From the IMG/VR virus record IMGVR_UViG_3300005613_000033, positions 19,132 through 83,131 of that record: a stretch of 64,000 nucleotides of DNA. One strand, written 5' to 3'. Shown piece by piece: positions 2,457 to 60,722 of this stretch. Position numbers and translations under genes: made by a program. Below the pieces are notes generated by a model, which saw only the letters and a program-made list of their open reading frames with translations, was not told where the DNA came from and did not search any database. Numbering within the stretch: position 1 is the stretch's first letter; each line of letters starts with the position of its first letter. The DNA comes from a virus. Lineage: Duplodnaviria; Heunggongvirae; Uroviricota; Caudoviricetes.

Positions 2457-2683
2457 TGACGCCAGACTTAGATTTAGTACCTACTGAAGACCTTTTGAAT
2501 GCTTTGAAGCAGCGTTTTGATGTTTTTGCAATGGTTGGTTTGTTTAATCGCGGTGAAGTCTTAAAAACTGAAGATGTATCTTATGCTTTTCGTGGCGAAC
2601 CGTTTGCTTGTTTGGGGGCGACTCAGTTCCTAGGGGCAAAAATTGAACACTACCTTATGCAAAATATCCAAAACAATGAATAA
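2456..2683 (+). CDS. hypothetical protein (75 aa)
   Basis: ORF with TAATG overlap onto the upstream gene. Confidence 0.4.
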   Translation: MTPDLDLVPTEDLLNALKQRFDVFAMVGLFNRGEVLKTEDVSYAFRGEPFACLGATQFLGAKIEHYLMQNIQNNE

Positions 2684-3050
2684 ACTCTGTGATCTCTTTG
2701 TATTAACCGTTGATCTCTTTTTATTAACCGTTGTAGTCAGTGTCATTATGGCTATTTCAGTTGATTTGCAAGCCAACTTAAATACAAATAGTGCACCAGC
2801 TAGTACGAACATAAGTATTGATCTGCCATCCGACTTCCCAGGGGATTTAAGGGAAAACGGATGGCACTTTTACATTTATAAGGAATCGCGTGGCATTCTT
2901 TGCTACGGAAACCAATGTTTAATAGCACTCCAAATTAACGATTACTATGTTACACCCTGGGGCAACTGTTATTGGCATGCAACAACAGGTTGGCAATTCC
3001 ATGCTGCCAAAGGGCCGATTGGCAATAAACTTGAGGTAGGGGATCTATGA
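2676..3050 (+). CDS. small secreted/membrane Cys-rich protein, paralogue of the next gene
   Basis: ATG at 2676. N-terminal hydrophobic helix LFVLTVDLFLLTVVVSVIMAI. Shares NDYYVTPWGNCYW with NDYMRTPWGNLYW in the 3047 gene. Confidence 0.5.
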   Translation: MNKLCDLFVLTVDLFLLTVVVSVIMAISVDLQANLNTNSAPASTNISIDLPSDFPGDLRENGWHFYIYKESRGILCYGNQCLIALQINDYYVTPWGNCYWHATTGWQFHAAKGPIGNKLEVGDL

Positions 3051-3448
3051 GAAAAGCACTAATGATTTTGACACTCTTAACGGGTTTAGTCACAGTCAGT
3101 GACACCAGCAATGGTGTTGTATGCACTACTACACCGATCATCTACGCAATGGATATCTCCCGCACCTATGAGAGGGGAAATTGGAAGCATTACATTCAAC
3201 ACCTTGTACCACCTGGCGACAGATATCTCTATCAAGGTCATTTGTATTACAAAGGGCGTGAGGTCCAAGATGCAAGGAACTACAATGATTACATGAGGAC
3301 CCCATGGGGGAACTTGTACTGGGTAGGGAAAACACGAGTAACTCGGTATGGTTCACAAGGATGGGTGCGAACACCCAACCTTCGATTTCCCATTGGGCAG
3401 GAAGTATTCCCTACGGAAAACGATTACAACTTTACAGAAAGAGACTAA
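3047..3448 (+). CDS. small secreted protein with signal peptide, paralogue of the previous gene
   Basis: N-terminus MRKALMILTLLTGLVTVS is signal-peptide-like. Shares the TPWGN(C/L)YW motif. ATGA overlap with the previous gene. Confidence 0.55.
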   Translation: MRKALMILTLLTGLVTVSDTSNGVVCTTTPIIYAMDISRTYERGNWKHYIQHLVPPGDRYLYQGHLYYKGREVQDARNYNDYMRTPWGNLYWVGKTRVTRYGSQGWVRTPNLRFPIGQEVFPTENDYNFTERD

Positions 3449-3519
3449 GCCATGCGTCTGACTGGCATTAGTATCATTCTGTTAAGATGGCACAATAATC
3501 CATAATGAAAGGGTAAACA

Positions 3520-3756
3520 ATGGCAGCATATGATCTTACACCTCAAGCGGAAGCGGAAGCGGAAGTTCCTGAGAAGTCTTGGTTCCAGTCCAAGATTATC
3601 TGGGTAAATGGCTTAACGTTGGTGGCTGGTATTATCGGCTACTTAGCTGGTCATGACCTGATTGCAAATAACACAGCTTTAGTTGCTGGTTTAGTCGCAA
3701 TACAAGGTCTTGTAAATACCGGCTTACGATTTGTGACTTACACGAAGATTAGTTAA
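3520..3756 (+). CDS. small two-TM membrane protein (holin-like topology, function unknown)
   Basis: 78 aa with two hydrophobic helices (LTLVAGIIGYLAGHDLI and ALVAGLVAIQGLV). RBS AAAGGG. Confidence 0.45.
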   Translation: MAAYDLTPQAEAEAEVPEKSWFQSKIIWVNGLTLVAGIIGYLAGHDLIANNTALVAGLVAIQGLVNTGLRFVTYTKIS

Positions 3757-3928
3757 GTTAAACAGCAACAATGACCCCTAGTAGGACTACTAATAACATG
3801 GCAGAAGACTCTAATAAAACTACTGACGAACAAGAAAAGAAAAACCTGAAGCGACAAAAGATTCGCTTTGCTCGAAATGATGAGCGTAAACCCCGACGAG
3901 AGCGTCCACGACCCGAAGGAAAGTAACC

Positions 3929-4120
3929 ATGGCTAAAAAGAAGCCAAAGAAATGGATTCAAAAAGCGGGGCTCAAGGAAGGTGCTTTAACTAAACAAGCT
4001 AAAGCGGCCGGATTTTCTAGTTGGAAGGCATATTGTGACCAACCAGCAGAAAAACTTAGCACAACAGCTAAACGACGCTGCAATCTTGCTCGAACTTTAG
4101 GTAAACTAGGAGAGAGATAA
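3929..4120 (+). CDS. small basic protein (63 aa)
   Basis: N-terminus MAKKKPKKW..., lysine-rich. RBS GGAAAG. Followed by a GC hairpin. Confidence 0.4.
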   Translation: MAKKKPKKWIQKAGLKEGALTKQAKAAGFSSWKAYCDQPAEKLSTTAKRRCNLARTLGKLGER

Positions 4121-4141
4121 GCCCTGGATGGGCATGTAGGT

Positions 4142-4173
4142 GGGCGGGTAGCCTTGCCCCAGGCTACCCGCCC
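4142..4173 (+). other. 12-bp GC-rich stem-loop without a U-tract
   Basis: GGGCGGGTAGCC..(8 nt)..GGCTACCCGCCC, immediately after the 3929 gene. Confidence 0.35.
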
Positions 4174-4200
4174 CGGAATGAAACTAGCGAGGGAAAAATC

Positions 4201-5034
4201 ATGTTTAATCGGAAACGCAAACTTATGATGACTGGGATAGCCAGCCTCGTTATTATGGCAGTGCTTGGCTTTTTCAGTTTTCAATATGTTTCAGATCAAT
4301 TTGAGACACCGCCTGTGGTTACCACATCAGTAATGGCACAGAAGAATGTTACAATCTACAGTGGGTTAACGCAGAACCTTGCCGGTGATGAAGCCGAAGT
4401 GATTATTGCAGCACCCGCTGAAGTTAAAATAGGGAAGTTAGTTGTCTTGGATGTTTCTCAGTCTGTTGGCAACAAATTTGAATGGATGGTTGTACCCGAA
4501 ACAGAAGACTTCTTAGTCATTGATGAAGGCCGACGTGCGGTTTTTAGTTCTGGTGTACCTGGTGAATTCATGTTCATCGTGGCCTGCGCTGTAAATGATA
4601 GTGTGAATGTTAAGCGACATGTAGTTCGAGTAATTGGTTCTACACCACCACCCCCAACTCCCGACCCTGAGCCGCCTGTACCACCGGGGCCGGCTACTAC
4701 TTTAAGCAAGAAAATAGGGACATGGTGTACTGGAATACAATCCCCATCTCGATCCAATGATGCAGTTAAGTTAGCTGGTGCCTTCGAGAGTATTGCTGCA
4801 CAAATCGACGCTGGGACATTAACACAGCCTTACGATATTATTACAGCTACAACAGAAGCCAATCGCGCCGCCTTAGGTGAACAACTTCAAGCTTGGATTC
4901 CATTTTTACGGTCCCTGCAAGCGGAGCTAGAACAACGTGCCAACAATGGGCTACTGGTTACACAATCCCAGCATTCGGCCGTGTGGAAGGAGGTTGCTAA
5001 AGGGTTGCGATATTTTGCAACTAGCAAGCAGTAA
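4201..5034 (+). CDS. membrane-anchored protein with Pro-rich linker
   Basis: N-terminal TM segment IASLVIMAVLGFFSF. Linker PPPPTPDPEPPVPPGP. RBS GAGGGAAAAA. Confidence 0.5.
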   Translation: MFNRKRKLMMTGIASLVIMAVLGFFSFQYVSDQFETPPVVTTSVMAQKNVTIYSGLTQNLAGDEAEVIIAAPAEVKIGKLVVLDVSQSVGNKFEWMVVPETEDFLVIDEGRRAVFSSGVPGEFMFIVACAVNDSVNVKRHVVRVIGSTPPPPTPDPEPPVPPGPATTLSKKIGTWCTGIQSPSRSNDAVKLAGAFESIAAQIDAGTLTQPYDIITATTEANRAALGEQLQAWIPFLRSLQAELEQRANNGLLVTQSQHSAVWKEVAKGLRYFATSKQ

Positions 5035-5065
5035 ATCCGCATAAGTAGCATATGGAGATAAGGTA

Positions 5066-8000
5066 ATGTTAAGGCGGGATTTTTTGAAATGGGGATTGGG
5101 TACCACGGCTGGCCTTTCAATGGGCTCGGGCCTTTGGATACCCCCCTGGTTGCAAGCAGCGGATGATACAATTCCAACAGCCGTGCAGGGCGGGTGGATT
5201 GATGACCCCATTATACGAGACCGTTGGGTAAGAACGCAAATAAAACCATATCTAACACAACAAAATAAACAAATCCTCAATACTGGAAAAGGTAAACTTG
5301 TTTGCCTTTGGAAGTATTTTGAGGAAGTGACTGAGTCCCCTCTAGTTCCACACCTTCAAGAAATTGGCGATTGTAAGCAAGCTGGAACCTTGGTTACTAT
5401 GGCAGATGGTAATCGCAAAGAAATTGAACGAATCAAAGTTGGAGAATATGTTTTAAGTCATCTAGGACGACCCCAACGGGTTACTAGAACTATACGTAAA
5501 CCGTTTAAGAAAAGCATGATTCGATTTCAAGCTAAAGGAACTTTTGAAGATGTTGTTTGTACCCCTGACCATCTGATTTTTGTGGGTGGGGGGAAATGGA
5601 AACCAGCAGGGGAGCTTAGTCTCGACGACCATGTCTTTATTCAAAGTTATCGAGGTTCTACAATAAGCAAAACATACGATCTCCTTGATATATGTCCCGA
5701 TGCTGAAATTAGAGACAATAAACTACGAGCCAAACAGAGTTCAAAATGGGTAAATCGTTTTGTACATCTGGATGACCGACTTGCTTATGTTATTGGAGCG
5801 TATCTTGCAGAAGGTGGTTGTAGTAGAGCCCAGGGACCTGAATGGAAGCCTGGTCAATGGTGTAAAGTTGATTTTAACTTAGGACATACTGAAGAAAAAT
5901 TTGCTAATACAATCGCAACTCTTATGCAACAAATCTTTGGTATCGAGTGCCAGGTATATTCAGTACCAAGTAAACCAACTGTAAAGTATGTAAGATGCCA
6001 AAACAAAGCGGTCGCCATGTTTTTCAAGCATCTTATACCAGGTAATACTTATACTAAGGAAGTACCTAAGGATATTCTAGTAGCGTCTAAAGAAATTCAA
6101 CTCAAATGTTTATTTGGATGGTTAGAAGGCGATGGCAGTTGCCCCGGCCGAAAACAATGTAAATCCTTAAAGAAACGTGGTCCATGTTGTTCTGGTACCA
6201 GTGTATCGCGTGAACTTGTTACAGGTATGTTTCGACTTGCTAATACTTGTGGTTTTAATCCAACCATGTCGTTTATAAAAGTTCAAGGGGAGCGGGCTCA
6301 AGCTCAAACTCTTTATTTGGGGGTCGCTGACACAGCCAAATTGTATCCAGGAATATCGAATAAAGTTTATACATACCCTGAAGCTAATCCATATGGATTA
6401 AAACGTAAACTACAATCTGTTTCAACTATCTCAAGAGTAGCTACAACTGTATATTGTATTGATGTTGAAGAAGATCATTCCTTTATAGCCAATGGTTACA
6501 GTGTACATAATTGTGTTAGCCATGCTTTTGGACTAGGTGTGGACATTTTAACCGCAGTTCAGATGCTCATGCTTGGTAAGCCTGAGCGTTGGATTGCTAA
6601 AGCTGCTACTGAGATCATTTATGCCGGTAGTCGCCACGAAGTTGGCGGCGGTAGGATCAAGTACAGTGATGGTTCTATGGGAACTTGGGCCGCAGATTTC
6701 ATCTCACAATGGGGCGTATTACAACGCAAGCGATATCTTGGTGGGCAATACGACTACACAGAATATTCAGGACGGGTAGCTCGCGAACTCGGCAAAAAGG
6801 GAGTCCCCGACCCCTTGGAGCCGCTTTGCAGATTACACCCGGTAAAGACCGTTTCGATCTGTAGGTCATGGAATGAATGCCGCGATGCGATAGCAAACGG
6901 ACACCTCGTTTGCATGTGTAGCAATGTGGGATTCAAGACCCGAGGAGGACGAGATAAAGATGGATTCTTGGCCCCGAGCAGACGACCCTGGATGCACGCG
7001 ATGCTTATCGCAGGTGTGGATGATGCTTTTAAGCGCCCAGGCGGTCTTATAATTAATAGTTGGGGTTGCTTTGATGAACAAACCGAAATTCTTACAGACG
7101 AAGGATGGAAGCTGTTCAAAGACTTAAATGAATCTGAAAAAATAGCTACTTTGAATCAAGAAACACATGAACTTGAATATCAAACCCCCACCTGCTACCA
7201 TCGGTATCCATACAATAGTTATTTATGGCATCATAAATCCAGAGATATAGATTTGGCTATTACACCTAATCATAATTTATATGTGGCTAAACGTGATAAG
7301 CCAGAGAACTGGTTTTTAACTCGGGCTGATGAGTGCCTTCAAACTATTAAAATGAAAAAGGATGCTAATAATTCACGACCCGACAAAGAGATTCATCAAG
7401 TAGGTGATGCTAAAATTCCAATGGACTTGTGGTTAGAATTTCTTGGTTACTTTTTATCCGAAGGGTATACTAGTAAAAATCAATCATATCACCAAGGTGC
7501 AAAAAATGGGATACAGAGAATAGTAGGTATTTGTCAAACTAATCAAGTTAACTACAAGATCATTCGTGCTTGCTTGGACCAATTACCTTTTGATTTTAAT
7601 TCCCATGCCAAATTATTTCTAAATCACACAAGCAAGGATTTACTCACAGAATTACTACCTTTTGGTAAAGCCCATGAAAAATATATCCCTGATTATGTTT
7701 GGGAATGTTCTGCCCGCCAATTGAAAATATTGTATGATGCTTTGATGCTAGGGGATGGATCCATTAGTCAAGGTGATACAGGAATAAAACGAACTTATTA
7801 CACTTCGTCCAAGCAATTGGCTGATGATTTTCAACGTTTACTATTGCATTGTGGTTTCGCTGGTGACATTTCGTATACAGATCGGCGAGGACGTGATAAC
7901 GGAACAGGCGGAATTACTCGACATATTGAGTATCGAATAGGCATTAAGATAAAAGCACTAGAGCAAAATATAACTTACAAACCTATTTTATTACCTTATC

Positions 8001-8239
8001 GAGGTGAAGTATTCTGTGTGACCGTTCCGAATCAAGTTATCTATGTACGTAGAAACGGGCGTGCAGTTTGGGCTGGTAATTCTAACTGGGTTTACGGCCC
8101 AAAACGACACGGGCAACCAGAGGGTTCCTTCTGGGCAGATGCTAGTGTCATTGATCGTGGTTTGAGACAAGGGGACAGTATAGCAATGAGTGCTTACCTT
8201 GGATATCCACGTCTTGATCTGGATTATCGTTTTTGGTAA
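5066..8239 (+). CDS. Tat-signal papain-like (C1-type) cysteine peptidase precursor interrupted by two inteins
   Basis: N-terminus MLRRDFLKWGLGTTAGLSMGSG is a twin-arginine signal (RRxFLK). Extein motifs: QEIGD-[intein1]-CVSHAFG (Gln then Cys, oxyanion/catalytic arrangement) and HAMLIAGVDD...GGLIINSWG-[intein2]-SNW (His and Asn-Ser-Trp-Gly of C1 peptidases). The spliced product would be about 339 aa. Confidence 0.7.
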   Translation: MLRRDFLKWGLGTTAGLSMGSGLWIPPWLQAADDTIPTAVQGGWIDDPIIRDRWVRTQIKPYLTQQNKQILNTGKGKLVCLWKYFEEVTESPLVPHLQEIGDCKQAGTLVTMADGNRKEIERIKVGEYVLSHLGRPQRVTRTIRKPFKKSMIRFQAKGTFEDVVCTPDHLIFVGGGKWKPAGELSLDDHVFIQSYRGSTISKTYDLLDICPDAEIRDNKLRAKQSSKWVNRFVHLDDRLAYVIGAYLAEGGCSRAQGPEWKPGQWCKVDFNLGHTEEKFANTIATLMQQIFGIECQVYSVPSKPTVKYVRCQNKAVAMFFKHLIPGNTYTKEVPKDILVASKEIQLKCLFGWLEGDGSCPGRKQCKSLKKRGPCCSGTSVSRELVTGMFRLANTCGFNPTMSFIKVQGERAQAQTLYLGVADTAKLYPGISNKVYTYPEANPYGLKRKLQSVSTISRVATTVYCIDVEEDHSFIANGYSVHNCVSHAFGLGVDILTAVQMLMLGKPERWIAKAATEIIYAGSRHEVGGGRIKYSDGSMGTWAADFISQWGVLQRKRYLGGQYDYTEYSGRVARELGKKGVPDPLEPLCRLHPVKTVSICRSWNECRDAIANGHLVCMCSNVGFKTRGGRDKDGFLAPSRRPWMHAMLIAGVDDAFKRPGGLIINSWGCFDEQTEILTDEGWKLFKDLNESEKIATLNQETHELEYQTPTCYHRYPYNSYLWHHKSRDIDLAITPNHNLYVAKRDKPENWFLTRADECLQTIKMKKDANNSRPDKEIHQVGDAKIPMDLWLEFLGYFLSEGYTSKNQSYHQGAKNGIQRIVGICQTNQVNYKIIRACLDQLPFDFNSHAKLFLNHTSKDLLTELLPFGKAHEKYIPDYVWECSARQLKILYDALMLGDGSISQGDTGIKRTYYTSSKQLADDFQRLLLHCGFAGDISYTDRRGRDNGTGGITRHIEYRIGIKIKALEQNITYKPILLPYRGEVFCVTVPNQVIYVRRNGRAVWAGNSNWVYGPKRHGQPEGSFWADASVIDRGLRQGDSIAMSAYLGYPRLDLDYRFW
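5372..6511 (+). mobile_element. intein 1 (380 aa) with LAGLIDADG homing endonuclease
   Basis: Block A CKQAGTLVTMADG, block B TPDHLIF, LAGLIDADG motifs LAYVIGAYLAEGG and LFGWLEGDGS, block F VYCIDVEEDHSFIANG, block G SVHN followed by +1 Cys. In frame with the host ORF. Confidence 0.85.
7067..8080 (+). mobile_element. intein 2 (338 aa) with LAGLIDADG homing endonuclease
   Basis: Block A CFDEQTEILTDEG, block B ITPNHNLYV, LAGLIDADG motifs LGYFLSEGY and LYDALMLGDGS, block F VFCVTVPNQVIYVRRNG. Ends ...WAGN (penultimate Gly, not His) with +1 Ser, so the C-terminal boundary is less certain than for intein 1. Confidence 0.7.
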
Positions 8240-8292
8240 GTGTTACGTGAGGAGTAGTTTGACGACTATTACCTTAGGTGCGAGGAAAATAG

Positions 8293-8991
8293 ATGCGAAT
8301 TTTAGTGGCAATTTTACTTATTCTAACGGTGGGTTTGTACCATGCTGAAGCTAATGAGAAAGGTAATAAGTCTGTTTTGGGGTCTTTGGCGATCCTGGAC
8401 AAAGGGACAGAAAATAGATCTCCCAGAGACAGTGGAGAAGGTAACCGATTTGGGGGAAACTTACTTGGATCATTCCGGCGTACCGCAGCTAGACTCCAAG
8501 AATACGATGGACTCACTCCCAATGGAAACTTCGAGCGAGATGGACTCGACTGGACTCGCAGACCAATTGGCCGACAAACTGGCCCAAAGGAAAGAGGAGC
8601 GAAGGTTGAGGCGCGAGCGAAGGAAATCTGGGAGTGGTCCCAAAAAAAGATCGTAGTCCCTGATTCTGTGAAGAATTATATGATATTCTTCACGATGGAG
8701 GGGTGTGGTGGTTGCAAGCAAATGTATCCTCACATCAAAGATTTACAGAGTCAAGGGTACAAGATTTTTGTTATCTACAACAACGCAAACCAGAAATTGA
8801 TACGGGAACATGCAGTAACAAGCTACCCAACAATGGTTATTTATGATGAGGGGCAGCAAGTTAAAAGATACCGAGGTCCAGTAGCGACAGAAGCCATCAC
8901 CCGATACCTAAATAAGCCTGAAACACCAGACGACCCTGACCGTATACACTATGATTTTGTAGATGGTCCTAACAAATACAAACTGTGGTAA
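8293..8991 (+). CDS. secreted thioredoxin-fold protein
   Basis: Signal peptide MRILVAILLILTVGLYHAEA. Trx-like core FFTMEGCGGCKQMYP ... SYPTMVIYDEGQ (CxxC and cis-Pro loop). RBS GAGGAAAA. Confidence 0.6.
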   Translation: MRILVAILLILTVGLYHAEANEKGNKSVLGSLAILDKGTENRSPRDSGEGNRFGGNLLGSFRRTAARLQEYDGLTPNGNFERDGLDWTRRPIGRQTGPKERGAKVEARAKEIWEWSQKKIVVPDSVKNYMIFFTMEGCGGCKQMYPHIKDLQSQGYKIFVIYNNANQKLIREHAVTSYPTMVIYDEGQQVKRYRGPVATEAITRYLNKPETPDDPDRIHYDFVDGPNKYKLW

Positions 8992-8995
8992 ATAT

Positions 8996-9559
8996 ATGAG
9001 CGACGATCTACAACAATCTGAAGACTTAGAGGTTACAGAACTCTCACGTCGCGAAGTTCGACAGCTTCGGCGCCAGAGACATTTTAATGATTCTGTAGAA
9101 GAGATTAATGAACCTCAAGTCGAAGAAATTGAACAACCAGTTGAACAACTGGTTGTCCTAACCGACGATGAAGTTTTAATGGATGGCGCGGGAGACGAAG
9201 GTTTTCTTCAACATGCCCTCCAATTTAAGGACCGACCTGACCGATATCATGGCGATTTCAAGTTCATTACACGACTTGCCGCCCGACGTGCTCGTCGGCG
9301 TAACCAAATTACCGCTGCGGAACATGAACAAGTTCTCAGCCTAATCAGAAAACCTATACGATTGCATAAGGAAACACGTAAACCATTTAACGCTTGGGGT
9401 GAATTTGAAAATCAAGTTCGAGCCCAAATGCCAAAGGAAATGGCAGCAAAGAGTGGTTTTGATTGGTCAACTCTATGGAAACAGATAGTAGAATGGCTCA
9501 AAGAAAATTGGATGACCGTTCTCAAAATTGCCCTGTCAGTTCTCCTTATGGTGATCTAA
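8996..9559 (+). CDS. hypothetical protein with C-terminal TM helix
   Basis: Start chosen at ATG 8996 (MSDDLQQSEDLEV...). Acidic N-terminal half, RRARRRNQ segment, C-terminal MTVLKIALSVLLMVI. Confidence 0.4.
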   Translation: MSDDLQQSEDLEVTELSRREVRQLRRQRHFNDSVEEINEPQVEEIEQPVEQLVVLTDDEVLMDGAGDEGFLQHALQFKDRPDRYHGDFKFITRLAARRARRRNQITAAEHEQVLSLIRKPIRLHKETRKPFNAWGEFENQVRAQMPKEMAAKSGFDWSTLWKQIVEWLKENWMTVLKIALSVLLMVI

Positions 9560-10244: not shown

Positions 10245-11912
10245 ATGAGCAATTTACTAAACGAGCTTGGATTATCTATAGCCGAAGGCTTACGCAGCAA
10301 GACTATTTCAAGCTGTACCAAATGGGCCTCACGACGGCGAATCATGGGCGAAGAGACAGACTTTCCAGGTCCGTTTTCCTTCGATTATCATCCATGGTGC
10401 AAGGAGATTTCCGATTCAACAGCATCGTTCAACACGGCTATGAAGGGAGCGCAATTAGGCGTCACCGAAATCGCTATCAATCGAGCCTTTTATACAATCG
10501 ATGTATTGAAGAAAGCAGTTCTATATGTACTGCCAACTCAAAACAATGCGTCCGACTTTTCAAAGACTCGATTCAATGGGGCATTGCACAATTCCGAATA
10601 CTTAAAGTCCATGTTCACGGATACGAACACAATTGGACTCAAGCAAGCGGGAGCCGTTCCACTATACATCAGAGGATCACGCGGCGACAGCAACCTAAAA
10701 TCCATTCCAGTCTCATATCTGATTTTAGACGAAATGGACGAAATGGATCAACGAGCTATTTGGCTCGCTTTAGAGCGTTTATCTGGTCATATGGAAAAAA
10801 GTGTTTTTGCAATCAGCACACCCACACTTCCAAAGTACGGGATTCACAAGTTATTTCTTAAAGGTACAATGGAAGAATGGACATTCATATGTCCGCACTG
10901 CAATAAATGGACCGAATTAACGTGGCCTGATTGCATTGAGATCCATGGAGAAGACGTAAATGATCCCAAGTGCTCACAATCATTTTTGAAATGTAAAGAG
11001 TGTCAACACCGTTTAGATCATATGATAAAACCTGAGTGGCTTAAAAGTGCGAAATGGCATGTTACAAACCCCGAAGCAGACGACGATCACCGGAGTTTCC
11101 ATGTCAACCAAATGTATTCGTACACTGTATCCCCAGGTGAGCTTGTTGTTGCTTATTTTCGTGGTTTAGGTGATGAAGCAGCGAATGTTGAATTCCATAA
11201 CTCAAAACTTGGTTTGCCATACATCCCAGAAGGTGGGCAAATTACCGATGACATACTCGATAATTGTATATCTAACTACACTACACAAGAGACACGCCCC
11301 TTAGAGAGTGGTCGGTTGATCGTGATGGGAGTTGACCAAGGTAAGTGGCATAACATTGAGATTACGGAATACTTTTTCGATACCTATTCACATGATCTCA
11401 ATGTAGCCGCGACAGCCAAGATTTTATGGACGGGGAAGATATTAGAAGATGAGTTTCCCAGATTAGATGAACTGATGCGTGAGTGGCAAGTCATGCACTG
11501 TGTAATCGACCCAGACCCACAAATCAATGACGCTCGACGCTTTGCCCGTAGATTCCCAGGTTATGTAACTCTTTGTCGATACAGGCGAGGGCAAACTGGA
11601 AAAGAGATTTCGATTCAAGAGGACGAACTAGGGACGCCGATGGCGACTGTAGATCGAACGAATTGGTTAGACGCGGCTTTAGGACGATTTCGATCAAAAC
11701 GAATACTACTGCCACGAGACATTTCCAGAGAATACCGGGAACAACTAAAAGCCCCAATTAGAACATACGAGAGGGACGAAATTGGCAACCCAATTGCAAA
11801 ATACGTGGAAACAGGTCCCGACCACTTTGCTCAAGCACGTTGCTACGCAGAAATTGCATTACCCTTAGCAGCATCGTATGTAACTAACAAGGACATAGCT
11901 GCATTTCTATAA
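10245..11912 (+). CDS. terminase large subunit, lambda GpA-like
   Basis: AMKGAQLGVTEIAIN aligns with the lambda gpA KSARVGYSK ATPase motif. Walker-B-like LILDEMDEMD. Cys cluster CPHCNKW...CKECQHRL. 555 aa. The overlapping frame 10214-10861 is spurious. Confidence 0.7.
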   Translation: MSNLLNELGLSIAEGLRSKTISSCTKWASRRRIMGEETDFPGPFSFDYHPWCKEISDSTASFNTAMKGAQLGVTEIAINRAFYTIDVLKKAVLYVLPTQNNASDFSKTRFNGALHNSEYLKSMFTDTNTIGLKQAGAVPLYIRGSRGDSNLKSIPVSYLILDEMDEMDQRAIWLALERLSGHMEKSVFAISTPTLPKYGIHKLFLKGTMEEWTFICPHCNKWTELTWPDCIEIHGEDVNDPKCSQSFLKCKECQHRLDHMIKPEWLKSAKWHVTNPEADDDHRSFHVNQMYSYTVSPGELVVAYFRGLGDEAANVEFHNSKLGLPYIPEGGQITDDILDNCISNYTTQETRPLESGRLIVMGVDQGKWHNIEITEYFFDTYSHDLNVAATAKILWTGKILEDEFPRLDELMREWQVMHCVIDPDPQINDARRFARRFPGYVTLCRYRRGQTGKEISIQEDELGTPMATVDRTNWLDAALGRFRSKRILLPRDISREYREQLKAPIRTYERDEIGNPIAKYVETGPDHFAQARCYAEIALPLAASYVTNKDIAAFL

Positions 11913-14120: not shown

Positions 14121-14822
14121 ATGGCTATTCCCGTTAATGTTGTAGAAGGGACAATCGAAACTGTCGTTGAAGTGGGAAATATCGAAAATATAACCCAAGT
14201 TAACGAAGTTGTCAACGTCCAAGAGGTTGCAAATGTAGCTAACGTAGCTGAGGTTGCTAACGTAGCTGAGGTTGCTAACGTAGCTAACGTAGCTGAAGTT
14301 GCTAATGTAGCTGAAGTTGCTAACGTAGCTGAGGTTGCTAACGTAGCTGAGGTTGCTAACGTAGCTAACGTAGCTGAAGTTGCTAATGTAGCTGAAGTTG
14401 CTAATGTAGCTAACGTAGCTGAGGTTGCTAACGTAGCTGAGGTTGCTAACGTAGCTGAGGTTGCTAACGTAGCTGAGGTTGCTAATGTAGCTGAAGTTGC
14501 TAACGTTGAGAGTGTAGCGGCATTGGTTAAGGAAACGACAGCATTTACCACTGTTGTGACAGCTAATTCCGAGACAGCTAACACAGCCAAGCAGTTACAT
14601 GCCGATACAGCCGCGAACAAGTTCGTGATGGTTCGGTCGCGTGACGATAACAGCACTACTAACCCATTGTGGGTTGGTAAGTCCACAGTTGATGCCCAAA
14701 ACAGTGCTAATGGTTATCCGTTGGACGCTGGTGAAAGTATCACTCTTCCAGTTGAGAACGCTAACGAAGTGTATGTAGACTCGGTCTCTGCGAATCAGAA
14801 TTATACATACGTCGTAGTCTAA
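14121..14822 (+). CDS. structural protein with ~32 tandem Val-Ala-Asn / Val-Ala-Glu tripeptide repeats (9-nt codon period, 18-nt DNA unit)
   Basis: Protein (VANVAE)n region across residues 35-130. RBS TAGGAG. The C-terminal ~100 aa is non-repetitive. Confidence 0.55.
   Translation: MAIPVNVVEGTIETVVEVGNIENITQVNEVVNVQEVANVANVAEVANVAEVANVANVAEVANVAEVANVAEVANVAEVANVANVAEVANVAEVANVANVAEVANVAEVANVAEVANVAEVANVAEVANVESVAALVKETTAFTTVVTANSETANTAKQLHADTAANKFVMVRSRDDNSTTNPLWVGKSTVDAQNSANGYPLDAGESITLPVENANEVYVDSVSANQNYTYVVV
14226..14513 (+). repeat. in-frame tandem DNA repeat, unit GTAGCTGAGGTTGCTAAC (18 bp, ~16 copies with synonymous variants)
   Basis: Read directly. The antisense ORF 13922-14686 (TSATLA repeats) is its mirror and is not coding. 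Confidence 0.85.
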
Positions 14823-15631: not shown

Positions 15632-18600
15632 ATGGCTACGTATTACTGGAGATCGTCGGTCAATAACACCTGGACCTCAAATAACTGGTCAACTACTGAC
15701 GGTGGTCCACTTAGTGGAACTTATCCACAGGCTGGCGATACAGCTATTTTCAAAGCTTCTAGCGGGCAAGGTAATTGCGGGCTGGATGCTAATGTTTCCA
15801 TAACAAAATTGGACATGCGCTCTGATTACACAGGGACGCTAAGTGGTAATACGTACAATTTCACGACAACTGGTGACATGATTATCGCCGGTACACAGAT
15901 CATAGCGGGTAGTGGTACCTGGACAACCGCAGGTCATTTGAACTATGTAAATGTGGGGACGTTTACGCCAAATGCCTCAAAATTCATAATGACCGGGACA
16001 GGAAAAACACTAACCAATAGTGCCGCAAATCGATACTTTTATGATCTTGAAATCAATGGGACAATTTCTGCCGTGGGGGCTGTCTTGTGGCATAATTCGC
16101 TTACGATTAAAACAGACAAATCATTGACACTAACCGACACCGATGCTGGAAACTACAACCTTGGTGGGACTTGTATCTCGAAATTGTACTTGGAATCCGG
16201 GGCAGATTTTGATCTAGGTGGACACCAAATTAATTGGTTTACTCCTGGTACAGGTGGTGTCCAGTCGATGGCGTCTACGGCTCGTATTCGTAATGGATCG
16301 ATTCGTTGTCTCTACCCCTCAACAACTACAGGTGTAGGGGTTTGGGATTTTGGGGCTACTTATGGTTGGGAAGTTAACTTCCGTGTGTTTGGACCTTCAG
16401 GTAACGATGGACATTTTACATTCCCGAATAAGGTATGTAAGATTGGTGGTTATTTTCGTGCTGAGATTCGTTCTTGGTATCCGAATGGTAGTCTCACACT
16501 CCATGCGGCCGGTAGCTCAACTGACGTGCAAATTAGTGGCTATTTTGCCACTCTCTCCGATACAGTTAATATTGGGTCTGTCAATGTCGATAACACAGGG
16601 GTGACTGGAAATAAATGGACGTTCAACAGTCATGTATATGATTGGATGGAAACGGCAAATGGTGCATCACGAGGGTGGACAAAGAATGCTGAATCCTGTT
16701 ACGCCAGTAGCGCAGTTGCCAGGGATTGGGACTTTACGAACTGGACAGTCCAAACCATTCAAATCTATGCTTCCAGTGGCACAGTCACTATGAATTCGGA
16801 TGTTAATTGTGTAAACTTCGACGTTAGTCAAGGTACATTCGATGCCAATGATTATGATCTCTATGTGCAAGGAAACTTCTTTGTTCGGACAAATGCCACT
16901 TGGACATTAAGTTCCAGCACCATTATCAATCTTACTGGTTCTGCTGCATCACAAATTGAAGCAGTCCCACGAGTCGATCCTATTACATTAAATCGAACTG
17001 GTGCTGGTGGTATGACGCAATCTGGGAATGTTCATACATCAAATCTAGTACTAACAGATGGGTTTTGGACTGGGGTTTCCTATGATCTTGAAACTCACGC
17101 TGGGTTGTCAAAAGGGGCTAGTGCCGGCCCTATCGACCTTGGAACTGGTGATATTACAGGTTGGGGCGATATCGATATCACAAGCATGGATGCGACAGGG
17201 TGTCAAATTATCTTTGCAGCATCTAAAACTCTAACCTATACCAATTGGCAATACCTAGATAGACTACAAATTATCAATAGTTCGACATGTTCATTGATGG
17301 CGGGTACGGACATAGTGATTAACATCACTGGTTCTGTGGATCTTCAAGCTAATTCGACATTCGATACTAAAGACCAACGTGTTTATTGCTGGACTGATGC
17401 AAGGGTTTGGATTCGGACAAATGCCCTGTGGACTGGTACACGTCAGCAATCACTACTATTCTATAATACTACATCAGGTAATGGATTGGTACTGAATGAC
17501 GGAATCTACGCTGGTTACGAGCTTCGATTCTATCAATGTACAGCGGGGACGCGATGGGCACCAGGGGTTTATAATCAGATTACTACTTACATTTATGGTG
17601 GTAATGATTGCTATATAAAACCCGACGCGGGAACTTTTTACCTCGCCAATCATCTGAGATTAAACAATATTAGTGGTAACGCCGTTTACATAGACATGAC
17701 AAATAATCCCACTTTCCAAATAGGAGGAGATTGTCTGTACGGCGGTGGTATTACGTCTGCCGATATTTTTTGGACTGTTAACGATGAGACATTTGAATTC
17801 GTTGGGTCAGCTAATCAGGAGTATGAATGGGCCCATGAAATTGGAAACGTTGTAGTAGATAATTCGGGTACAGGTAGTGATCTCTTCTTGAATCTTGGTT
17901 ATGGAGCCCACTTACATTGTAAAAATTTAACTGGTACTGATGGTGGAATTAACTGTGACTCACATCAAGTTACTGTTGAAGGAGATTGTGTCCTTGATTT
18001 CGATAACTTGACAACAGGTGGTGCAGATTGGAATTTATATGGTCATTTTGATTGGAAAGATGTGACAACTTGGTCAGTAGATTCTAGTCAAAAGTTCATA
18101 ATGAATGGGGTTGACAAGTATCTATTGGGAGGTGGTACAAAAGCCCTTCCATATCTGACGATTCCGGCAGGCAAATCAGCTTATATTCATGCTAGTACAA
18201 GCGTGGCAGTTGATATTAATTCTGCGGCTACTATTGCTGGTACTTTAACTGTCGATGGCACTGTTGATTTTCGACTTTATAGTGCTAATCTAACAGTTGA
18301 AACAACTGGCACCGTAACAGGTACTAGTGATGTTATCTTTTATCTGGCTGGTAGCAACACCGGGCTTATCCTAAATGGTTCTTACACCTATAGCCCCGCT
18401 CGAACATACTTTGTTGATCCAGACACAACCTCATTGATCCCAGCAGGAACTTATGGTGGGCATATTCGAGTTCATTCTACAAGTGGTGTCAAAACATGGC
18501 AACCTGATACCGGGACTTATGATATTTCTGGATATCTACTCTTTGAAGCTGAAGATGGGGATACATTGAATGTAGATTGCCGATCCTCACAACCTGTTTT

Positions 18601-21600
18601 TAATGTTGGAAGTCTTCTGTTCTTGCGGTCTGGGGCGACATCAGGTGGTTTGAATGTCTATTGTAACCACCCAACTCTGGATATTGACTGGACTATCAAT
18701 GGTACTTCATCCTATCACTTCGCTACCAATAATTGGTTCAAGGGTTCAGGCACCATTACTTTCAACGGTGGGGATACCCGTGAAATTGACTTCTATGATA
18801 ATGAAGTTGAAAATATCATCATAAATAAAACAGGTGGTACGGATATCTCGTTAGCTTACGAGTTGAAGTGTGATAGTCTTACAATCAATTCCGGCGATTT
18901 TGACGCATCAACATACGATGTAACAGTTGGTGACCTTACTTTAACAGGAACGGGTGCAATAGACTGGGGTGATAATACCTGGGAAATCTCAGGTAATATC
19001 TCTACCACTGGCCAAAGTGGAACTTGGATAGGAGGAGGTACAACTTGGAATCTATCAGGTTCGGGGAAAACATGGACGCAACGAGACAATATGGTCATCG
19101 CCAATACCTGGATCAAATCGGGCGCTAGCTACAATTGTTCGGGTATTATTATACCGGTCTATGGTTCTGGAAGTACCTTTATAATAGATGGTACAATCAC
19201 TGGGATTGCTAGCTTCCGGTGTTACTATGGTGAAATACATCTAAATTCGACAGGTGTATTTCAAGCTAACTTTATACGTTCGTATCTGGCACAAGATGGT
19301 GGTGGATTTACTACCTGGGATGGTGATTATGATTCATTGAGTGGCTTGCTCCACCTACGAGAGTGGCACACAGCGGGGGTTATGGTTCCGGCTGATTACT
19401 CGGCCCATAACTTAGAAGTTCGTATAGAGTCCCGATTGCATAATGGTGATATGGTGTTTAGCAGCGGTACCTACACATTCCATCATTTAACATGCCAAGC
19501 AATATATGCTGGTTATACCACAGCTATCAATACAACCAACAATCCTGATATAATTATTAAGGGTAACCTTAATAGCGACGTAACATTGGGGACCTTAACT
19601 TGGACAAAGGGTACTGGTACAATTACTATGGATTCCACAGGCGACTATATCATTGGGATGGGTGGCCTAGAATTAGAAAATATGGTGATTGATAAAAATA
19701 GTAGTATCACCTTAACAGCGGACCTCGATGTAACTAGCCTCGAAATTAGCAGCGGTGACTTTGATGCGGCAGGATATAATGTCACAATAAGTTCTGATGC
19801 TCTGGATATCTCAACATCTGGAACCGTAGACTGTGGAAGCGGTGACTGGACGTGTTGGGGTGACGTAATTATCGACGGTATAGGTACCTATAATGTTGAC
19901 ACCGCCAATTTCTATCTCAAAGGTACAAGTAAAGGGATTGCTACAGCCACAGATTATTGGGGTTTTGAAAATCTTTATGTCACGGGGTCGTACACTGCCA
20001 ATGGTTTAGGGGATGCGGATAACGTTTACGTCGCAGGTATCTTGGATATCACTGGAACATTTATTACAGGTAACACAAACACAGGTGGGCTAACACTTGC
20101 TGTCAATACTGATCTTCGTATACAAACAGGCGGGACTCTAACCGGTGGTGGGGCAACGACGGGTGAGATACGATGGTACTTCCCAGAAGTAGGTATCACA
20201 GTCTTAGATGGAACTTGGAGTAATTGGATTACACAAATTTACTACCCTAATACCGCAGCGAATTGGGTACCAGGAACGTATGATTGCCGTATCGAGTGGA
20301 TAACCAGCCCTGATGTTGCATGTGTTGTTAATTTTGACGCAGGTACTTACAACTTTACAGGTGGTTTAATTCAATTCCGTGTAGGTATCAGTGGGAATAT
20401 TCACGATGAAGATTTGACTGTCAATCTAAATGCCGGTACGGTCTTCAATACTAGTAATGATACTGCGTTCGGATTTGCAATGACTGAATCAACCAGTACA
20501 GGTGATCTATATTTTAATTGCAATAATGCAAACTTCAATTTTAGTGGCAACGTTTTCCTAAATGACTCCTCACCCGGTAGTGATGTGATCTATACTAAAG
20601 GTACAGGGACTATCACATTTGAGGGTGACGTAAATCAATTTGTTAATATGCCGTATTCATTGGAAGACATTGTAGTCAATAAATCAGCTAATACAGTAGA
20701 TTTTGTGAGTGCTATCACATGTGAGACCTATACCCTAACCTCTGGCGGGGCCGATTTCAATGACGATGCCACGACTGGTGTTGTTAGTATCACAGGCGGT
20801 ACTCAGAGTATGACTGGGACTAACAAGACCTGGACTTGTCCATCTTTCACCGTAAATGCAGGTGTGTCAGCCACAGTTGATGTGAATGACAACAATGTGA
20901 CGATCACCGGGGCTGGTGATCTGTCCTTTCTCGCGAACTGCAACATTTCATTCGGATCACGGACCTGGACTTGCAATGGTGATTTCTTTGCCACCGGTGA
21001 CACTGTAGTCTTCACCCGTGATACAAGCACATTGAGGCTTACAGGTACGGGTAACTTTACTTGTACAGGGAGCCTTTCAACAAAGTATCTCTATAGTATT
21101 GAAATTCCAGTTGGTGCAGTACGTACTGTACTTGCCGGAAGCAACATGTGTAGCTACAATACTGTTGGAACAGATGCAAGCATAGACGTTGATGGGACTC
21201 TCACTTTGAACGGGAGCGGTAGAGCTTTCTACCACTCAAAAATCAATCTCAATACTGGCGGTATAATTAACGGTAGTTCATTTCTCCAATGTTATGCTAA
21301 TGATAATGGTGGTGGACTTACGACATTAGATGGTACGCTGACACCTGGAACATTCTATCTGGATTACCCAACTGCTACCGCTATCTGTGTGTCAGGAACA
21401 TACGACTGTACTGTCTATGTTCAATGTAATGATTCTTCAAACAGCGTGTGGCAACTTTCCGCTGGCACCTACATTTACAACTATTCGGTGTATTATCAAG
21501 CTACGGATGCGGCTGGAAGTTTGACAATTAATGGAAGTGTCAACAATCCGGATCATGTCTACAAGCAACATGTCTTCTGGACCAATACAGGTGATGTTTT

Positions 21601-26113: not shown

Positions 26114-26127
26114 ACCAAGTCTATTAT

Positions 26128-26158
26128 GGGTGCCCAGCCTTCGGGCTGGGCCCTTTTT
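26128..26158 (+). terminator. rho-independent terminator
   Basis: GGGTGCCCAGCC-TTCG-GGCTGGGCCC followed by TTTTT. Confidence 0.75.
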
Positions 26159-26182
26159 CTAACACGTAAAAGAGGACACAAC

Positions 26183-26491
26183 ATGGACTTAATGCTTTTT
26201 TCACAGGTAGACCCATTGATTTGGACTAATCTACTCTCCCAGTATGGTCCATTGATTGGCGTTGTTCTTTTCTTTATTTGGAGGGATTGGAAACGAGAAG
26301 ATAAGCTCAGTGAGCGTATCAATTCATTAGAAGACTATCAAAAAGAGACGCTAGCGGAACTTGTATCACAGTCAACGGTAGCTTTGACACATAGTGCTGA
26401 TTGCATGAAATGGGTCGGAGCAGTCATGTCGAAAGTCTGTGATCGTTGTCCTGAGTTAGATGGTTGTCCAAAACCACCAGAGAATAAGTAA
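26183..26491 (+). CDS. small membrane protein (102 aa) with C-terminal CxxC...C cluster
   Basis: ATG at 26183 with RBS AAGAGGA. TM helix LIGVVLFFIW. The ORF-track start at 26126 lies inside the terminator hairpin. Confidence 0.45.
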   Translation: MDLMLFSQVDPLIWTNLLSQYGPLIGVVLFFIWRDWKREDKLSERINSLEDYQKETLAELVSQSTVALTHSADCMKWVGAVMSKVCDRCPELDGCPKPPENK

Positions 26492-40716: not shown

Positions 40717-40761
40717 AGTTGGTTAGGGAAGCCCTTGTAGGGCTTCCCGGCCAACTCTTTT
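40717..40761. terminator. bidirectional hairpin terminator between convergent genes
   Basis: GGGAAGCCC-TTGTA-GGGCTTCCC with outer GTTGG/CCAAC pairing and a T-run on the plus side. Lies between the 40158 gene (+) and the HNH gene (-). Confidence 0.55.
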
Positions 40762-41278
40762 AGTCTATATATTCCCAACCATAACCACCTGTTGTTTTAC
40801 GACGCCCATTACAAACATTCCAGATGTTACTATGCGGGCATCCAGTTTCTTCTGCCGCAATACTCATGTTAATAAATTCAACACCATCTGATCTTCTAAC
40901 AGATCGACCACCATGTGTACCATCTCGACGTTTATCAAAACCATCTTCACTTTTTGTCCCATAACAGAGATTAGAAACTGAATTATCTGATATTCCATTA
41001 GGACCATGTCGAATTACACACCCCTCAAAAGGGCCAATTAACCAAGCATTAGCGACAAGATGATGAACATAATGAGTTTTCTTAATACCTTCTTTTGATA
41101 ATCTTAATACAAGATAACCACTTGTGGCTGCGGGTATAAGCTTTAGAATTTTACCCCTCCAATTACGGAATCCACCTTTAGAGTGGCGAATAATCCGATC
41201 AACTGACCTGACACGACCTAAGTTGCTAACTTCGTAATAACCCTCATAATTAACAACATCTTTCCATTGTTCGTCCAT
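40760..41278 (-). CDS. HNH homing endonuclease (NUMOD4 N-terminus + HNH_3)
   Basis: N-terminus MDEQWKDVVNYEGYYEVSNLGRVRS (NUMOD4-like). HHLVANAWL...RHGPNG...DNSVSNL (HNH). Paralogue of 56637-57206. Opposite strand, inside the tail operon. Confidence 0.85.
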   Translation of the reverse strand: MDEQWKDVVNYEGYYEVSNLGRVRSVDRIIRHSKGGFRNWRGKILKLIPAATSGYLVLRLSKEGIKKTHYVHHLVANAWLIGPFEGCVIRHGPNGISDNSVSNLCYGTKSEDGFDKRRDGTHGGRSVRRSDGVEFINMSIAAEETGCPHSNIWNVCNGRRKTTGGYGWEYID

Positions 41279-41318: not shown

Positions 41319-42362
41319 ATGCTTCGATTACTGGAAGGATTCGATTTCTACGGTGTCTCGGGCCGCACAGGTTCGGGTCTGAATACCGATATAAAAAGAC
41401 GTCACGAAGGCGGTTCTATCCTTAATGGAACTGATGGTCAGCTTATTACTGGTAGAGGAGGAGATGGTTTAGCCTTAGAATTTAATTATGATAGTGACAA
41501 CAAAGTTTATTTATCACGTTATGAACCCGGAGAATCTGATACAATAATCGTGGGGTTTGCTTTCAAATCGCCTTCAAATTATTCGACAGAATCTTCACGT
41601 AAGATATTTGAATTTGTCTATGGTCATCTAATGCTGTATTGGGTACAAGGTGCTTTGTATCTTAACAATTATGATTGGACAACTGCGATACCACTTGGTT
41701 ATGCATTGAAGCCGAATCGTTGGTATTATTTTGAATTCAAAATCTACTTTCATTCAACATTAGGAACTCTTGATGTGAAGGTGAATGGTCAAACACTATA
41801 CAGTGATACCAATATAGACACTCTCTATGACTCACAATCACACACTCTGATTACATTGCATGCACCAGAAGATAACAGCGGATTTGATGATCTTTATATC
41901 TGTGATAATACTGGCTCTGACAATAATGATTTTCTAGGTCCAATTAAAGTTGAAACCTTGCGACCGGATGGTGACGATGGTTCACAAAATTGGACACCAA
42001 GTACTGGAGGCAATCATTCCGCACTCGTAAATGCCGCAAATATGTGGGATCAAACCGATTACATTGAAGCTTCTGGAGCGAATATCGATGATCTCTGGAC
42101 CTACTCTAATTTAGCCACAATCACGGGGGCAATTTATGGCGTGCAACTGATTACAGCAGCTTGGACAGACGTAGGATTGCCGCTCATTTTACAGTCTATA
42201 TGTGACTCGGGTAGTACTGTAGAGTATTCCCCAAGTAAGGGAATTGGGGTTGATAAGCTTCCAGCGACTCATGAAATGATTTGGGAAACCGATCCGGATA
42301 CAACAAATGCGTGGACTGCAAATGGTGTTAATGGGGCTTCTTTTGGCGTAAGGAAAGTCTAA
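41319..42362 (+). CDS. tail protein paralogue 1 of 3 (347 aa)
   Basis: Shared motifs with the next two genes: L(L)EGF(D/E)xxG N-terminus, DGDDxxxxWT, YGVQL, ETDP(D/E)TxNAW...FGV C-terminus. Confidence 0.55.
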   Translation: MLRLLEGFDFYGVSGRTGSGLNTDIKRRHEGGSILNGTDGQLITGRGGDGLALEFNYDSDNKVYLSRYEPGESDTIIVGFAFKSPSNYSTESSRKIFEFVYGHLMLYWVQGALYLNNYDWTTAIPLGYALKPNRWYYFEFKIYFHSTLGTLDVKVNGQTLYSDTNIDTLYDSQSHTLITLHAPEDNSGFDDLYICDNTGSDNNDFLGPIKVETLRPDGDDGSQNWTPSTGGNHSALVNAANMWDQTDYIEASGANIDDLWTYSNLATITGAIYGVQLITAAWTDVGLPLILQSICDSGSTVEYSPSKGIGVDKLPATHEMIWETDPDTTNAWTANGVNGASFGVRKV

Positions 42363-43417: not shown

Positions 43418-43432
43418 TTGAGGGAGTTAGAT

Positions 43433-60711: not shown

Positions 60712-60722
60712 TTTCGATTTAT

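Follow-up and report, generated by a model that had tools for sequence, protein, structure and literature searches.

To our knowledge, phage lysis is understood almost wholly from peptidoglycan hydrolases that are released by holins or by signal-arrest-release (SAR) signals. In the lambda-type lysis cassette, the holin, endolysin and spanin genes come first in the late operon, upstream of terminase. The same genomic position and orientation is taken by the cassette described here (2676–9559, + strand), which was found in a stretch of 64,000 nucleotides from a Caudoviricetes virus (IMG/VR record IMGVR_UViG_3300005613_000033, positions 19,132 to 83,131 of that record; the whole stretch is referred to as the window, and all coordinates are positions within it). 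At its core are a signal-anchored partner protein, a papain-fold cysteine protease with a twin-arginine (Tat) signal, and an exported thioredoxin, and the cassette lies directly upstream of, and in the same orientation as, the genes for the large terminase subunit (TerL), portal, coat and tail proteins. Based on sequence comparison and structure prediction, we propose, at a probability of roughly 40%, that the cassette constitutes late-expressed machinery for envelope proteolysis, serving in lysis or egress. This reading is favored because the position mirrors that of the lambda lysis genes and envelope-directed proteins are concentrated there, because signal-bearing and signal-less forms of the enzyme coexist in one family, and because the triad of partner, protease and thioredoxin stands beside other exported hydrolases in sister lineages and no recognisable endolysin is present in the window.

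As for the lambda cassette, the genes include small membrane proteins together with an envelope-directed enzyme, and the N-terminally anchored, predicted periplasmic protein with its helical C-terminal domain recalls an i-spanin. Unlike the lambda cassette, no gene can be assigned to a holin, endolysin or spanin family, an o-spanin lipoprotein is missing, the enzyme is a C1-type protease instead of a muramidase, amidase or transglycosylase, and a thioredoxin and two proteins of a family that we call TPWG are added. The + strand from 1761 to about 51.4 kb is a single long series of co-oriented genes with the cassette at its front. TerL is of the GpA type (10245–11912, + strand; GpA_ATPase 3.7e-32, GpA_nuclease 2.2e-9), and is followed by genes for the portal, a scaffold-like protein, a P22-like coat (8.4e-28) and a tape-measure protein. 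Of about ten consecutive genes at 2676–9559, seven specify predicted membrane or exported proteins. A strongly hydrophobic segment is present in 8 of the 11 open reading frames (ORFs) at 2.6–9.6 kb and in 4 of 54 in the remaining window (Fisher p = 1.3e-5); two of the eight positives are probably spurious overlapping ORFs, and the screen misses TPWG paralogue B and the Tat signal. Signals were called from hydrophobicity, inspection of the n-, h- and c-regions, the Pfam TAT_signal score and conservation of the arginine pair. The first-pass annotation of this DNA had proposed a cluster of secreted or membrane proteins in this region, and the cluster is real: every gene that it listed, among them the mini-protein with two transmembrane segments (2-TM protein), the anchored protein with a proline linker and the signal-peptide thioredoxin, is found on the + strand where it had been placed. 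Its remark that a classical endolysin is absent from the window agrees with the outcome for about 50 ORFs that were scanned with Pfam and PHROGs, in which none was found, some small ORFs being unscanned; domains of the muramidase, transglycosylase, amidase or peptidoglycan-endopeptidase type were found neither in the cassette proteins nor in these roughly 50 ORFs. Scans for promoters and terminators returned fewer sites than in shuffled sequence, and are uninformative with respect to operon structure.

Related loci were gathered first as a set of 84 (4 through protein look-ups and 80 from IMG/VR), to which 10 were then added from genomes, and the triad was counted with iterated profiles in the 70 loci that have enough flanking sequence. 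The protease is directly preceded by the anchored protein in 60 of these and has the thioredoxin downstream in 55, and the full triad is present in 53. To judge from this conservation, the signal-anchored protein with its Ig-like and helical domains, the protease and the thioredoxin form an evolutionarily conserved module of predicted exported or membrane proteins, in line with the earlier suggestion of an exported module, now centred on the Tat-signal cysteine protease and the thioredoxin. The cassette is located immediately upstream of TerL in 72 of 84 loci, and heads an operon of structural genes with which it is co-oriented; its earlier description as part of an early region is wrong. Single-sequence searches returned a recurring order on one strand, i.e., regulator-like gene, 2-TM protein, small basic protein, anchored protein, protease, thioredoxin, protein with a C-terminal helix, TerL and portal. 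In four large-genome relatives, the rightward operon starts with the regulator-like gene, the 2-TM protein, the anchor, the protease and the thioredoxin, followed by TerL, and the annotation within ±8–10 kb includes no classical lysis domain. Two further loci (L076 and L078) carry the triad without an adjacent TerL; here the upstream gene keeps its signal, the downstream gene encodes a signal-bearing protein that resembles thioredoxin or glutaredoxin according to Pfam, and the neighbours are other exported hydrolases, a trypsin-like protease and an SNase. Homologues of the protease number over 550 in metagenomes, with 200 matches in IMG/VR, and none is from a cultured phage. We found no paper that describes a Tat-signal phage protease with a thioredoxin module.

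The protease is encoded by an ORF of 1057 residues (5066–8239, + strand). The first-pass annotation correctly identified a Tat-signal protease here, but two-thirds of the ORF is intein, and the enzyme itself, i.e., the spliced extein, has 339 residues. The extein aligns end to end with intein-less homologues of about 340 residues (best identity 87%, to homologues of 338 residues), and Gln98, Cys103, His264 and Asn284-Ser285-Trp286 (extein numbering) are invariant in an alignment of 52 sequences. With TAT_signal as the sole exception, the extein has no match in Pfam (Peptidase_C1 and C1_2 included), NCBIfam or the PDB sequences. The closest PDB entries to an AlphaFold2 model of the extein (pLDDT 88.6), as retrieved by Foldseek, are xylellain (E = 2e-9), cathepsins S, B and K, and Legionella Lpg2622, and the fold is closest to C1A enzymes and unlike CHAP or NlpC/P60. 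Phage proteins labelled Peptidase_C1 in BFVD also match the model (E = 5e-9). Papain-fold domains do exist in phage lysins, which is in favor of a lysis role: the same database holds phage proteins whose annotation combines a C1-like domain with muramidase or peptidoglycan-binding modules, and the mycobacteriophage endolysin LysA carries a papain-family domain, N5 (PMC3314691). As modelled, the extein represents a distant and unclassified C1-like papain-fold family. In addition to Cys103, residues Cys208 and Cys238 are co-conserved (87% each), and may form a structural disulfide.

The secreted bacterial C1 proteases xylellain, Lpg2622 and C. difficile Cwp84 share with the phage enzyme the fold, the Gln-Cys-His-Asn site and the NSWG motif, and the likeness would extend to function in that they are exported and act on extracytoplasmic proteins. 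Unlike these relatives, to which its sequence identity is only 11–20%, the phage enzyme is not recognised by the Peptidase_C1 model, has no I29-type propeptide, is phage-encoded, and combines a Tat signal with two inteins. Because the active site is of C1A type, a protein substrate can be expected.

The N-terminus of the protease (MLRRDFLK...WLQA/A, where a slash marks a cleavage or splice site) has a twin-arginine motif, a weakly hydrophobic h-region and an AxA-like c-region, and the predicted signal peptide, MLRRDFLKWGLGTTAGLSMGSGLWIPPWLQA/A, covers 5066–5158 on the + strand. The assignment is based on Pfam TAT_signal scores of 17.7–19.6 bits, which are under the cut-off of 22.7, and on conservation of the arginine pair, present in at least 90% of the 52 aligned homologues; the motif RRxFL is found in 55 of 85 untruncated homologues. 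About 20 of the 85 have no signal at all, while their anchored and thioredoxin neighbours keep theirs. Export, as proposed at first pass, thus does not extend to every protease, nor to every thioredoxin, of the family, but the signal-less homologues are not cytoplasmic proteins of known function. The gene lies close to terminase and portal, which could also suit a capsid or virion maturation protease with assembly factors as neighbours; we regard this as extremely improbable, and reject the identity on account of the Tat signal and the gene position. The conserved signal would send the enzyme out of the cytoplasm, the gene is placed upstream of TerL instead of in the portal-to-coat interval, the sequence resembles no known prohead-protease family, and a P22-like coat with scaffold is a system that normally works without a prohead protease.

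Export ahead of lysis, and the inactivity that this requires, are features of the pre-exported endolysins, which include the SAR/pinholin systems of P1 Lyz and phage 21 R and the Sec-signal enzyme Lys44 of fOg44. The coexistence of signal-bearing and signal-less members in one enzyme family is a further likeness, and is known from canonical and SAR endolysins. Signal-less proteases with signal-bearing partners, as seen in the sister lineages, are the pattern that would be expected if a holin releases the protease. In P1 Lyz, activity is controlled through the active-site cysteine, which undergoes caging and isomerisation, and this provides a precedent for thiol control. Unlike these endolysins, the phage protease is predicted to be exported by the twin-arginine route, its substrate is probably protein, and control would be exerted by separate proteins (thioredoxin and TPWG) and not by an intramolecular SAR domain. 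We know of no phage lysis enzyme with a twin-arginine signal. Among host enzymes, the amidases AmiA and AmiC set a precedent for Tat export of folded hydrolases that remodel the envelope, but they are zinc amidases that act on peptidoglycan and have an unrelated fold.

The export signals and the conserved triad apply equally to an alternative in which the exported protease remodels the envelope, trimming or destroying host surface or periplasmic proteins such as the phage receptor or the uptake machinery, with the anchor, thioredoxin and TPWG proteins as helpers. Superinfection would then be blocked, or loss of progeny on cell debris avoided. A C1-type active site implies protein substrates here too, and late expression would fit destruction of the receptor before release, for which T5 Llp is a precedent. 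We consider this alternative unlikely. The roughly one quarter of homologues that lack a signal (about 20 of 85, as above) are hard to square with a periplasmic role before lysis, the position corresponds to a core late gene and not to a moron, no lysogeny genes are located nearby, and none of 10 cassette proteins matches the PADLOC models for defence or exclusion proteins. Among the functions listed at first pass, a lysis or envelope-effector role remains the best reading, but a superinfection-exclusion set finds no match in PADLOC.

The two inteins, both of the LAGLIDADG type, are placed exactly at the catalytic motifs of the protease. Intein 1 (380 residues; 5372–6511, + strand) is inserted at GD/C, so that the catalytic cysteine is its +1 residue, and intein 2 (338 residues; 7067–8080, + strand) at NSWG/S, just past the catalytic asparagine motif. 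The Pfam Intein_splicing and Hint models match precursor residues 100–482 (Intein_splicing 43.8 bits, cut-off 35.8), and LAGLIDADG_3 matches residues 893–947 (1.5e-11, 44.8 bits). The junctions read …IGD/CKQAGT…SVHN/CVSHAFG for intein 1 and …INSWG/CFDEQT…VWAGN/SNWVYG for intein 2, and thus possess the residues for Hint splicing, i.e., Cys1, a terminal HN (intein 1) or GN (intein 2), and Cys or Ser at +1. Breakpoints are defined at the DNA level by two relatives, of which L001 is without both inserts and L005 has the second intein only, and a mini-intein occupies the same GD/C site in five more distant homologues (P0046, P0075, P0085, P0089 and P0100). An exported Tat substrate is an unusual intein host, in that it is not a protein of DNA metabolism. 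Since splicing and folding must precede export in the cytoplasm, the Tat route fits an intein-bearing, cysteine-dependent enzyme, and Tat, as an exporter of folded proteins, would be the only route with which prior splicing is compatible. The genome is rich in selfish elements, which beside the two inteins comprise two NUMOD4/HNH homing-endonuclease genes (40760–41278 and 56637–57206, both − strand) that are similar in DNA sequence to each other and to one such gene in L001 and L005.

The thioredoxin-fold protein (232 residues; 8293–8991, + strand) starts with a Sec signal, MRILVAILLILTVGLYHAEA/N (…YHAEA/NEKG), followed by a low-complexity spacer of about 100 residues and a thioredoxin domain with the motifs CGGC and cis-Pro YPT (Pfam Thioredoxin 1.1e-11, 45.1 bits, cut-off 23.5). 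Its sequence matches in the PDB are protein disulfide isomerase a-domains and thioredoxins. Two forms exist among the related loci, a long one of 150–290 residues with an N-terminal signal or transmembrane (TM) segment, and a short one of 86–107 residues with no signal, which occurs in 22 Tat-positive loci. In L085, the only short-form locus inspected closely, the short thioredoxin follows a separate TM mini-ORF that is homologous to the N-terminus of a long-form thioredoxin. We predict that the thioredoxin probably sets the thiol/disulfide state of the protease or of its partner. The description of the whole module as disulfide-dependent, made at first pass, is unsupported, as the thioredoxin is the sole argument for it, the TPWG family is not cysteine-rich, and the thioredoxin is signal-less in the loci just mentioned.

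The short form also bears on the question of whether the cassette is one functional unit. The genes could be inherited neighbours within one phage lineage, the protease and the thioredoxin having unrelated roles, e.g., cytoplasmic processing for the former, as for its cellular homologues, and nucleotide metabolism or DNA replication for the latter, as for many phage thioredoxins, glutaredoxins and NrdH proteins. PHROGs places the thioredoxin under nucleotide metabolism, and signal-less cellular homologues of the protease stand alone, as the short thioredoxin stands without a signal. Most of the loci, moreover, come from one TerL/portal lineage, for which synteny alone is weak evidence. This explanation seems rather unlikely, since the triad recurs with different neighbours, without an adjacent TerL and with a signal-bearing thioredoxin, exported proteins are strongly enriched in the cluster, and the TPWG family is independently tied to C1-protease inhibition.

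That tie comes from the two small proteins at the front of the cassette. Protein A (124 residues; 2676–3050, + strand) has a signal or anchor and one TPWG domain of about 85 residues, NDYYVTPWGNCYW, and protein B (133 residues; 3047–3448, + strand) a Sec-type signal and one TPWG domain, NDYMRTPWGNLYW; the stop codon of A and the start codon of B overlap (ATGA). Homologues open with MNK(L/I)KD, which shows that A correctly starts at the ATG at 2676. A tandem duplication of 21 nt (2690–2733; 2.1 copies, 95% match) doubles seven residues in the signal region of A (DLFVLTV/DLFLLTV, the slash here separating the two copies), and lengthens the hydrophobic region beyond what is usual in homologues. 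The two proteins are 33% identical over 75 residues (pairwise E = 2e-7), and A-like and B-like domains are fused into a single two-domain protein in P0155, P0156 and L005. On these two grounds their paralogy, noted at first pass, is real, but the attribute cysteine-rich does not apply: several cysteines are found in A only, B has a single one, and the family consensus has none.

A profile built from A and B retrieved 121 representatives (E ≤ 1e-3) among 1.84 billion proteins, with the domain, of motif [ND][YF]xxTPWGxxYW…GW, in one to seven copies per protein. No Pfam or NCBIfam model matches the domain, and its profile has no match in the PDB; by these comparisons, TPWG is an undescribed domain family. 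In 35 of 120 members scanned, TPWG is fused to Inhibitor_I42 (chagasin), the next commonest partner being found in only 3, and the usual cellular architecture is signal, TPWG, I42, with Phycisphaerae and Acidobacteriota as named owners. Chagasins reportedly inhibit C1 proteases and no others (bioRxiv 10.64898/2026.06.02.729523). The possibility that TPWG is itself a diverged chagasin was rejected, as the hhalign probability between the TPWG and I42 profiles is 0.5%, and A and B have no I42 match in Pfam. Three contexts of cellular TPWG-I42 genes contain no C1 protease beside them, and no chagasin genes were found in place of TPWG in other phage lineages. TPWG is thus tied to C1 proteases by two independent associations, being fused to a C1 inhibitor in bacterial proteins and encoded next to a C1-like protease in phages, and the TPWG proteins are probably regulators, and may be inhibitors, of the phage protease. 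The paralogues, which the first-pass annotation had listed with the module and for which it had noted the shared TPWGNxYW motif, are confined to the closest relatives (L001, L002, L005 and L044, together with the loci of P0155 and P0157), and the domain is otherwise tied to chagasin-type inhibitors; they do not belong to the core.

The arrangement is reminiscent of cruzipain with chagasin and of staphopain with staphostatin, in that a cysteine protease is encoded near small proteins of a domain family linked to C1 inhibition. Unlike these pairs, TPWG is not homologous to chagasin, its inhibitory function is putative, and it is present only in a phage sub-lineage. Gene pairs of a protease and its cognate inhibitor are typical of secreted bacterial cysteine proteases, and the top structural neighbours of the extein include the secreted bacterial C1 enzymes xylellain and Lpg2622. 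The cassette could in this light be a secreted effector of exoprotease, maturation factor and inhibitor, similar to the streptopain and staphopain operons, that benefits the infected or lysogenic host and has the phage as carrier. We find this very improbable, as the cassette is fixed within the structural operon across more than 70 phage loci, no integrase and no moron-like promoter or terminator features are seen, and Tat alone would deliver the protease to the periplasm only.

Of the other cassette members, the signal-anchored partner protein (277 residues; 4201–5034, + strand) has a basic N-terminus, a TM segment at about residues 8–24, a disordered spacer, an Ig/PKD-like β-sandwich (about 65–145), a proline-rich linker, STPPPPTPDPEPPVPPGP, and a helical bundle (167–275). 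When tested as a spanin, it gave no Pfam Rz match, and no ORF with a lipobox is embedded in or adjacent to its gene; the cysteine context of TPWG protein B (NGVVC) is not a lipobox either. The 2-TM protein (78 residues; 3520–3756, + strand) is a holin- or pinholin-like candidate with two Gly/Ala-rich TM helices, assigned to residues 26–44 and 47–65 from Kyte-Doolittle hydropathy. Its C-terminus is only weakly charged, and its family has a core of about 60 residues (SKTxWVN…N..LR..T..PI), with homologues at the equivalent position in 28–30 related loci; no match was found in Pfam, PHROGs, NCBIfam, holin families or cultured phages. The basic protein of 63 residues (3929–4120, + strand; phrog_20603, unknown function) is a neighbour conserved in 17 loci, has no hydrophobic segment, and is probably cytoplasmic. 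At the end of the cassette, a charged protein (8963–9559, + strand; translation probably starts at the ATG at 8996) has a hydrophobic helix near its C-terminus, WMTVLKIALSVLLMVI, that is conserved in 44 of 62 distinct homologues, and may be a tail-anchored membrane protein, the membership of which in the module is uncertain. The first gene of the rightward operon, just before the cassette (1761–2456), encodes a protein of 231 residues with a Cys/His-rich N-terminus, is conserved in position in about 25 related loci, and may specify a zinc-binding regulator of the late operon.

Combining these elements, the envelope-proteolysis machinery that we favor would operate as follows. The protease precursor would fold in the cytoplasm, where both inteins splice out and thereby rebuild the catalytic cysteine and asparagine motifs, and the folded enzyme would then be exported by Tat. 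In the periplasm, it would be positioned or controlled by the anchored partner, the thioredoxin would set its thiol/disulfide state, and, in the present sub-lineage, the exported TPWG proteins would restrain it as stoichiometric inhibitors, with the 2-TM protein acting as holin or pinholin to set the timing. The target would be an envelope protein, such as the tethers between outer membrane and wall, the S-layer or wall proteins, and not the stem peptides of peptidoglycan.

Several observations weigh against this proposal. No holin, endolysin or spanin model in Pfam, PHROGs or NCBIfam matches any gene of the cassette, no o-spanin-like lipoprotein was found in it, and the extein, the 2-TM protein and the anchored protein are without match in 50,697 cultured phage records. 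As TPWG and chagasin are not homologous, the inhibitor role derives from association only, and most of the phages with the protease lack TPWG. The compartment of the thioredoxin, with its short signal-less form, is inconsistent across lineages. Signal-less cellular homologues of the protease are stand-alone genes in ordinary contexts on the chromosomes of Mucilaginibacter and Balneolaceae, and in metagenome-assembled genomes (MAGs) of Planctomycetes, from which it follows that the family is not intrinsically one of lysis enzymes. We know of no C1A-type enzymes that act as peptidoglycan hydrolases; because of this, and because the genome continues past the window, the start of which falls inside a gene, a separate endolysin may lie outside the window.

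A more specific form of the proposal concerns hosts with a protein wall. Cysteine- and proline-rich protein envelopes have historically been described for Planctomycetes and their relatives, and such envelopes, or an S-layer, could be the target if the exported thioredoxin were to reduce envelope disulfides, the Tat protease to digest the envelope, and the TPWG inhibitors to set the timing. The occurrence of protease homologues in Pirellulaceae and Planctomycetia MAGs and of TPWG-chagasin proteins in Phycisphaerae, and the lack of an endolysin in the window, are compatible with this scenario, which as a whole we hold to be decidedly doubtful. MAG labels of protease homologues (Thiotrichales, Pacearchaeota, Clostridia and Anaerolinea bins) are uninformative or unreliable with respect to the host.

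The remainder of the window contains a number of further features. The gene at the window start (3–1214, − strand) encodes the N-terminal 401 residues of a glucose-6-phosphate dehydrogenase, 81% identical to that of L001, and runs off the window; an ORF on the opposite strand (573–1133, + strand) is spurious. Genes for IMPDH and a sugar epimerase are found upstream in relatives and have the appearance of auxiliary metabolic genes, and in the large-genome relatives L004 and L102 (contigs of 156–178 kb) a PCRF/RF-1 release factor, Thg1, NDK and a class V aminotransferase are encoded just upstream of the cassette. An ORF of 233 residues that directly follows the portal gene contains an 18-nt tandem repeat, GCTAACGTAGCTGAGGTT, in about 15 copies (14238–14506) that give ANVAEV-like repeats. 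Between the portal region and the genes for scaffold and coat, an ORF of 2502 residues (15632–23140) is without a Pfam match. Further downstream, past the tape-measure gene, there are three tandem paralogous genes for proteins of about 350 residues each (41319–44461; phrog_2448, unknown function), followed by a gene of the Pfam sulfotransferase family (46086–46823). A dATP/dGTP diphosphohydrolase N-terminal domain (53338–53886, − strand; Pfam dGTP_diPhyd_N, 1.2e-21; MazZ-like) hints at modified-base DNA metabolism, such as 2-aminoadenine. Two SPFH/Band 7 proteins are encoded at 49917–50474 and 59639–60535, the second with a strong N-terminal TM segment; outside the cassette, membrane association is otherwise predicted only for the tape-measure protein and an ORF of 121 residues (26126–26491). 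Two adjacent tRNA-Met(CAT) genes (60639–60796) and one tRNA-Thr(TGT) gene (63671–63746) are also present.

A widespread uncultured clade of phages thus places a Tat-signal papain-type protease, a dedicated thioredoxin and an anchored partner where lysis genes normally sit. If the proposed role in envelope proteolysis is true, it would add a proteolytic, redox-linked step to the ways in which phages open cells, and the clade would be a source of new enzymes active on envelope proteins, with TPWG as a candidate new family of cysteine-protease inhibitors or regulators.

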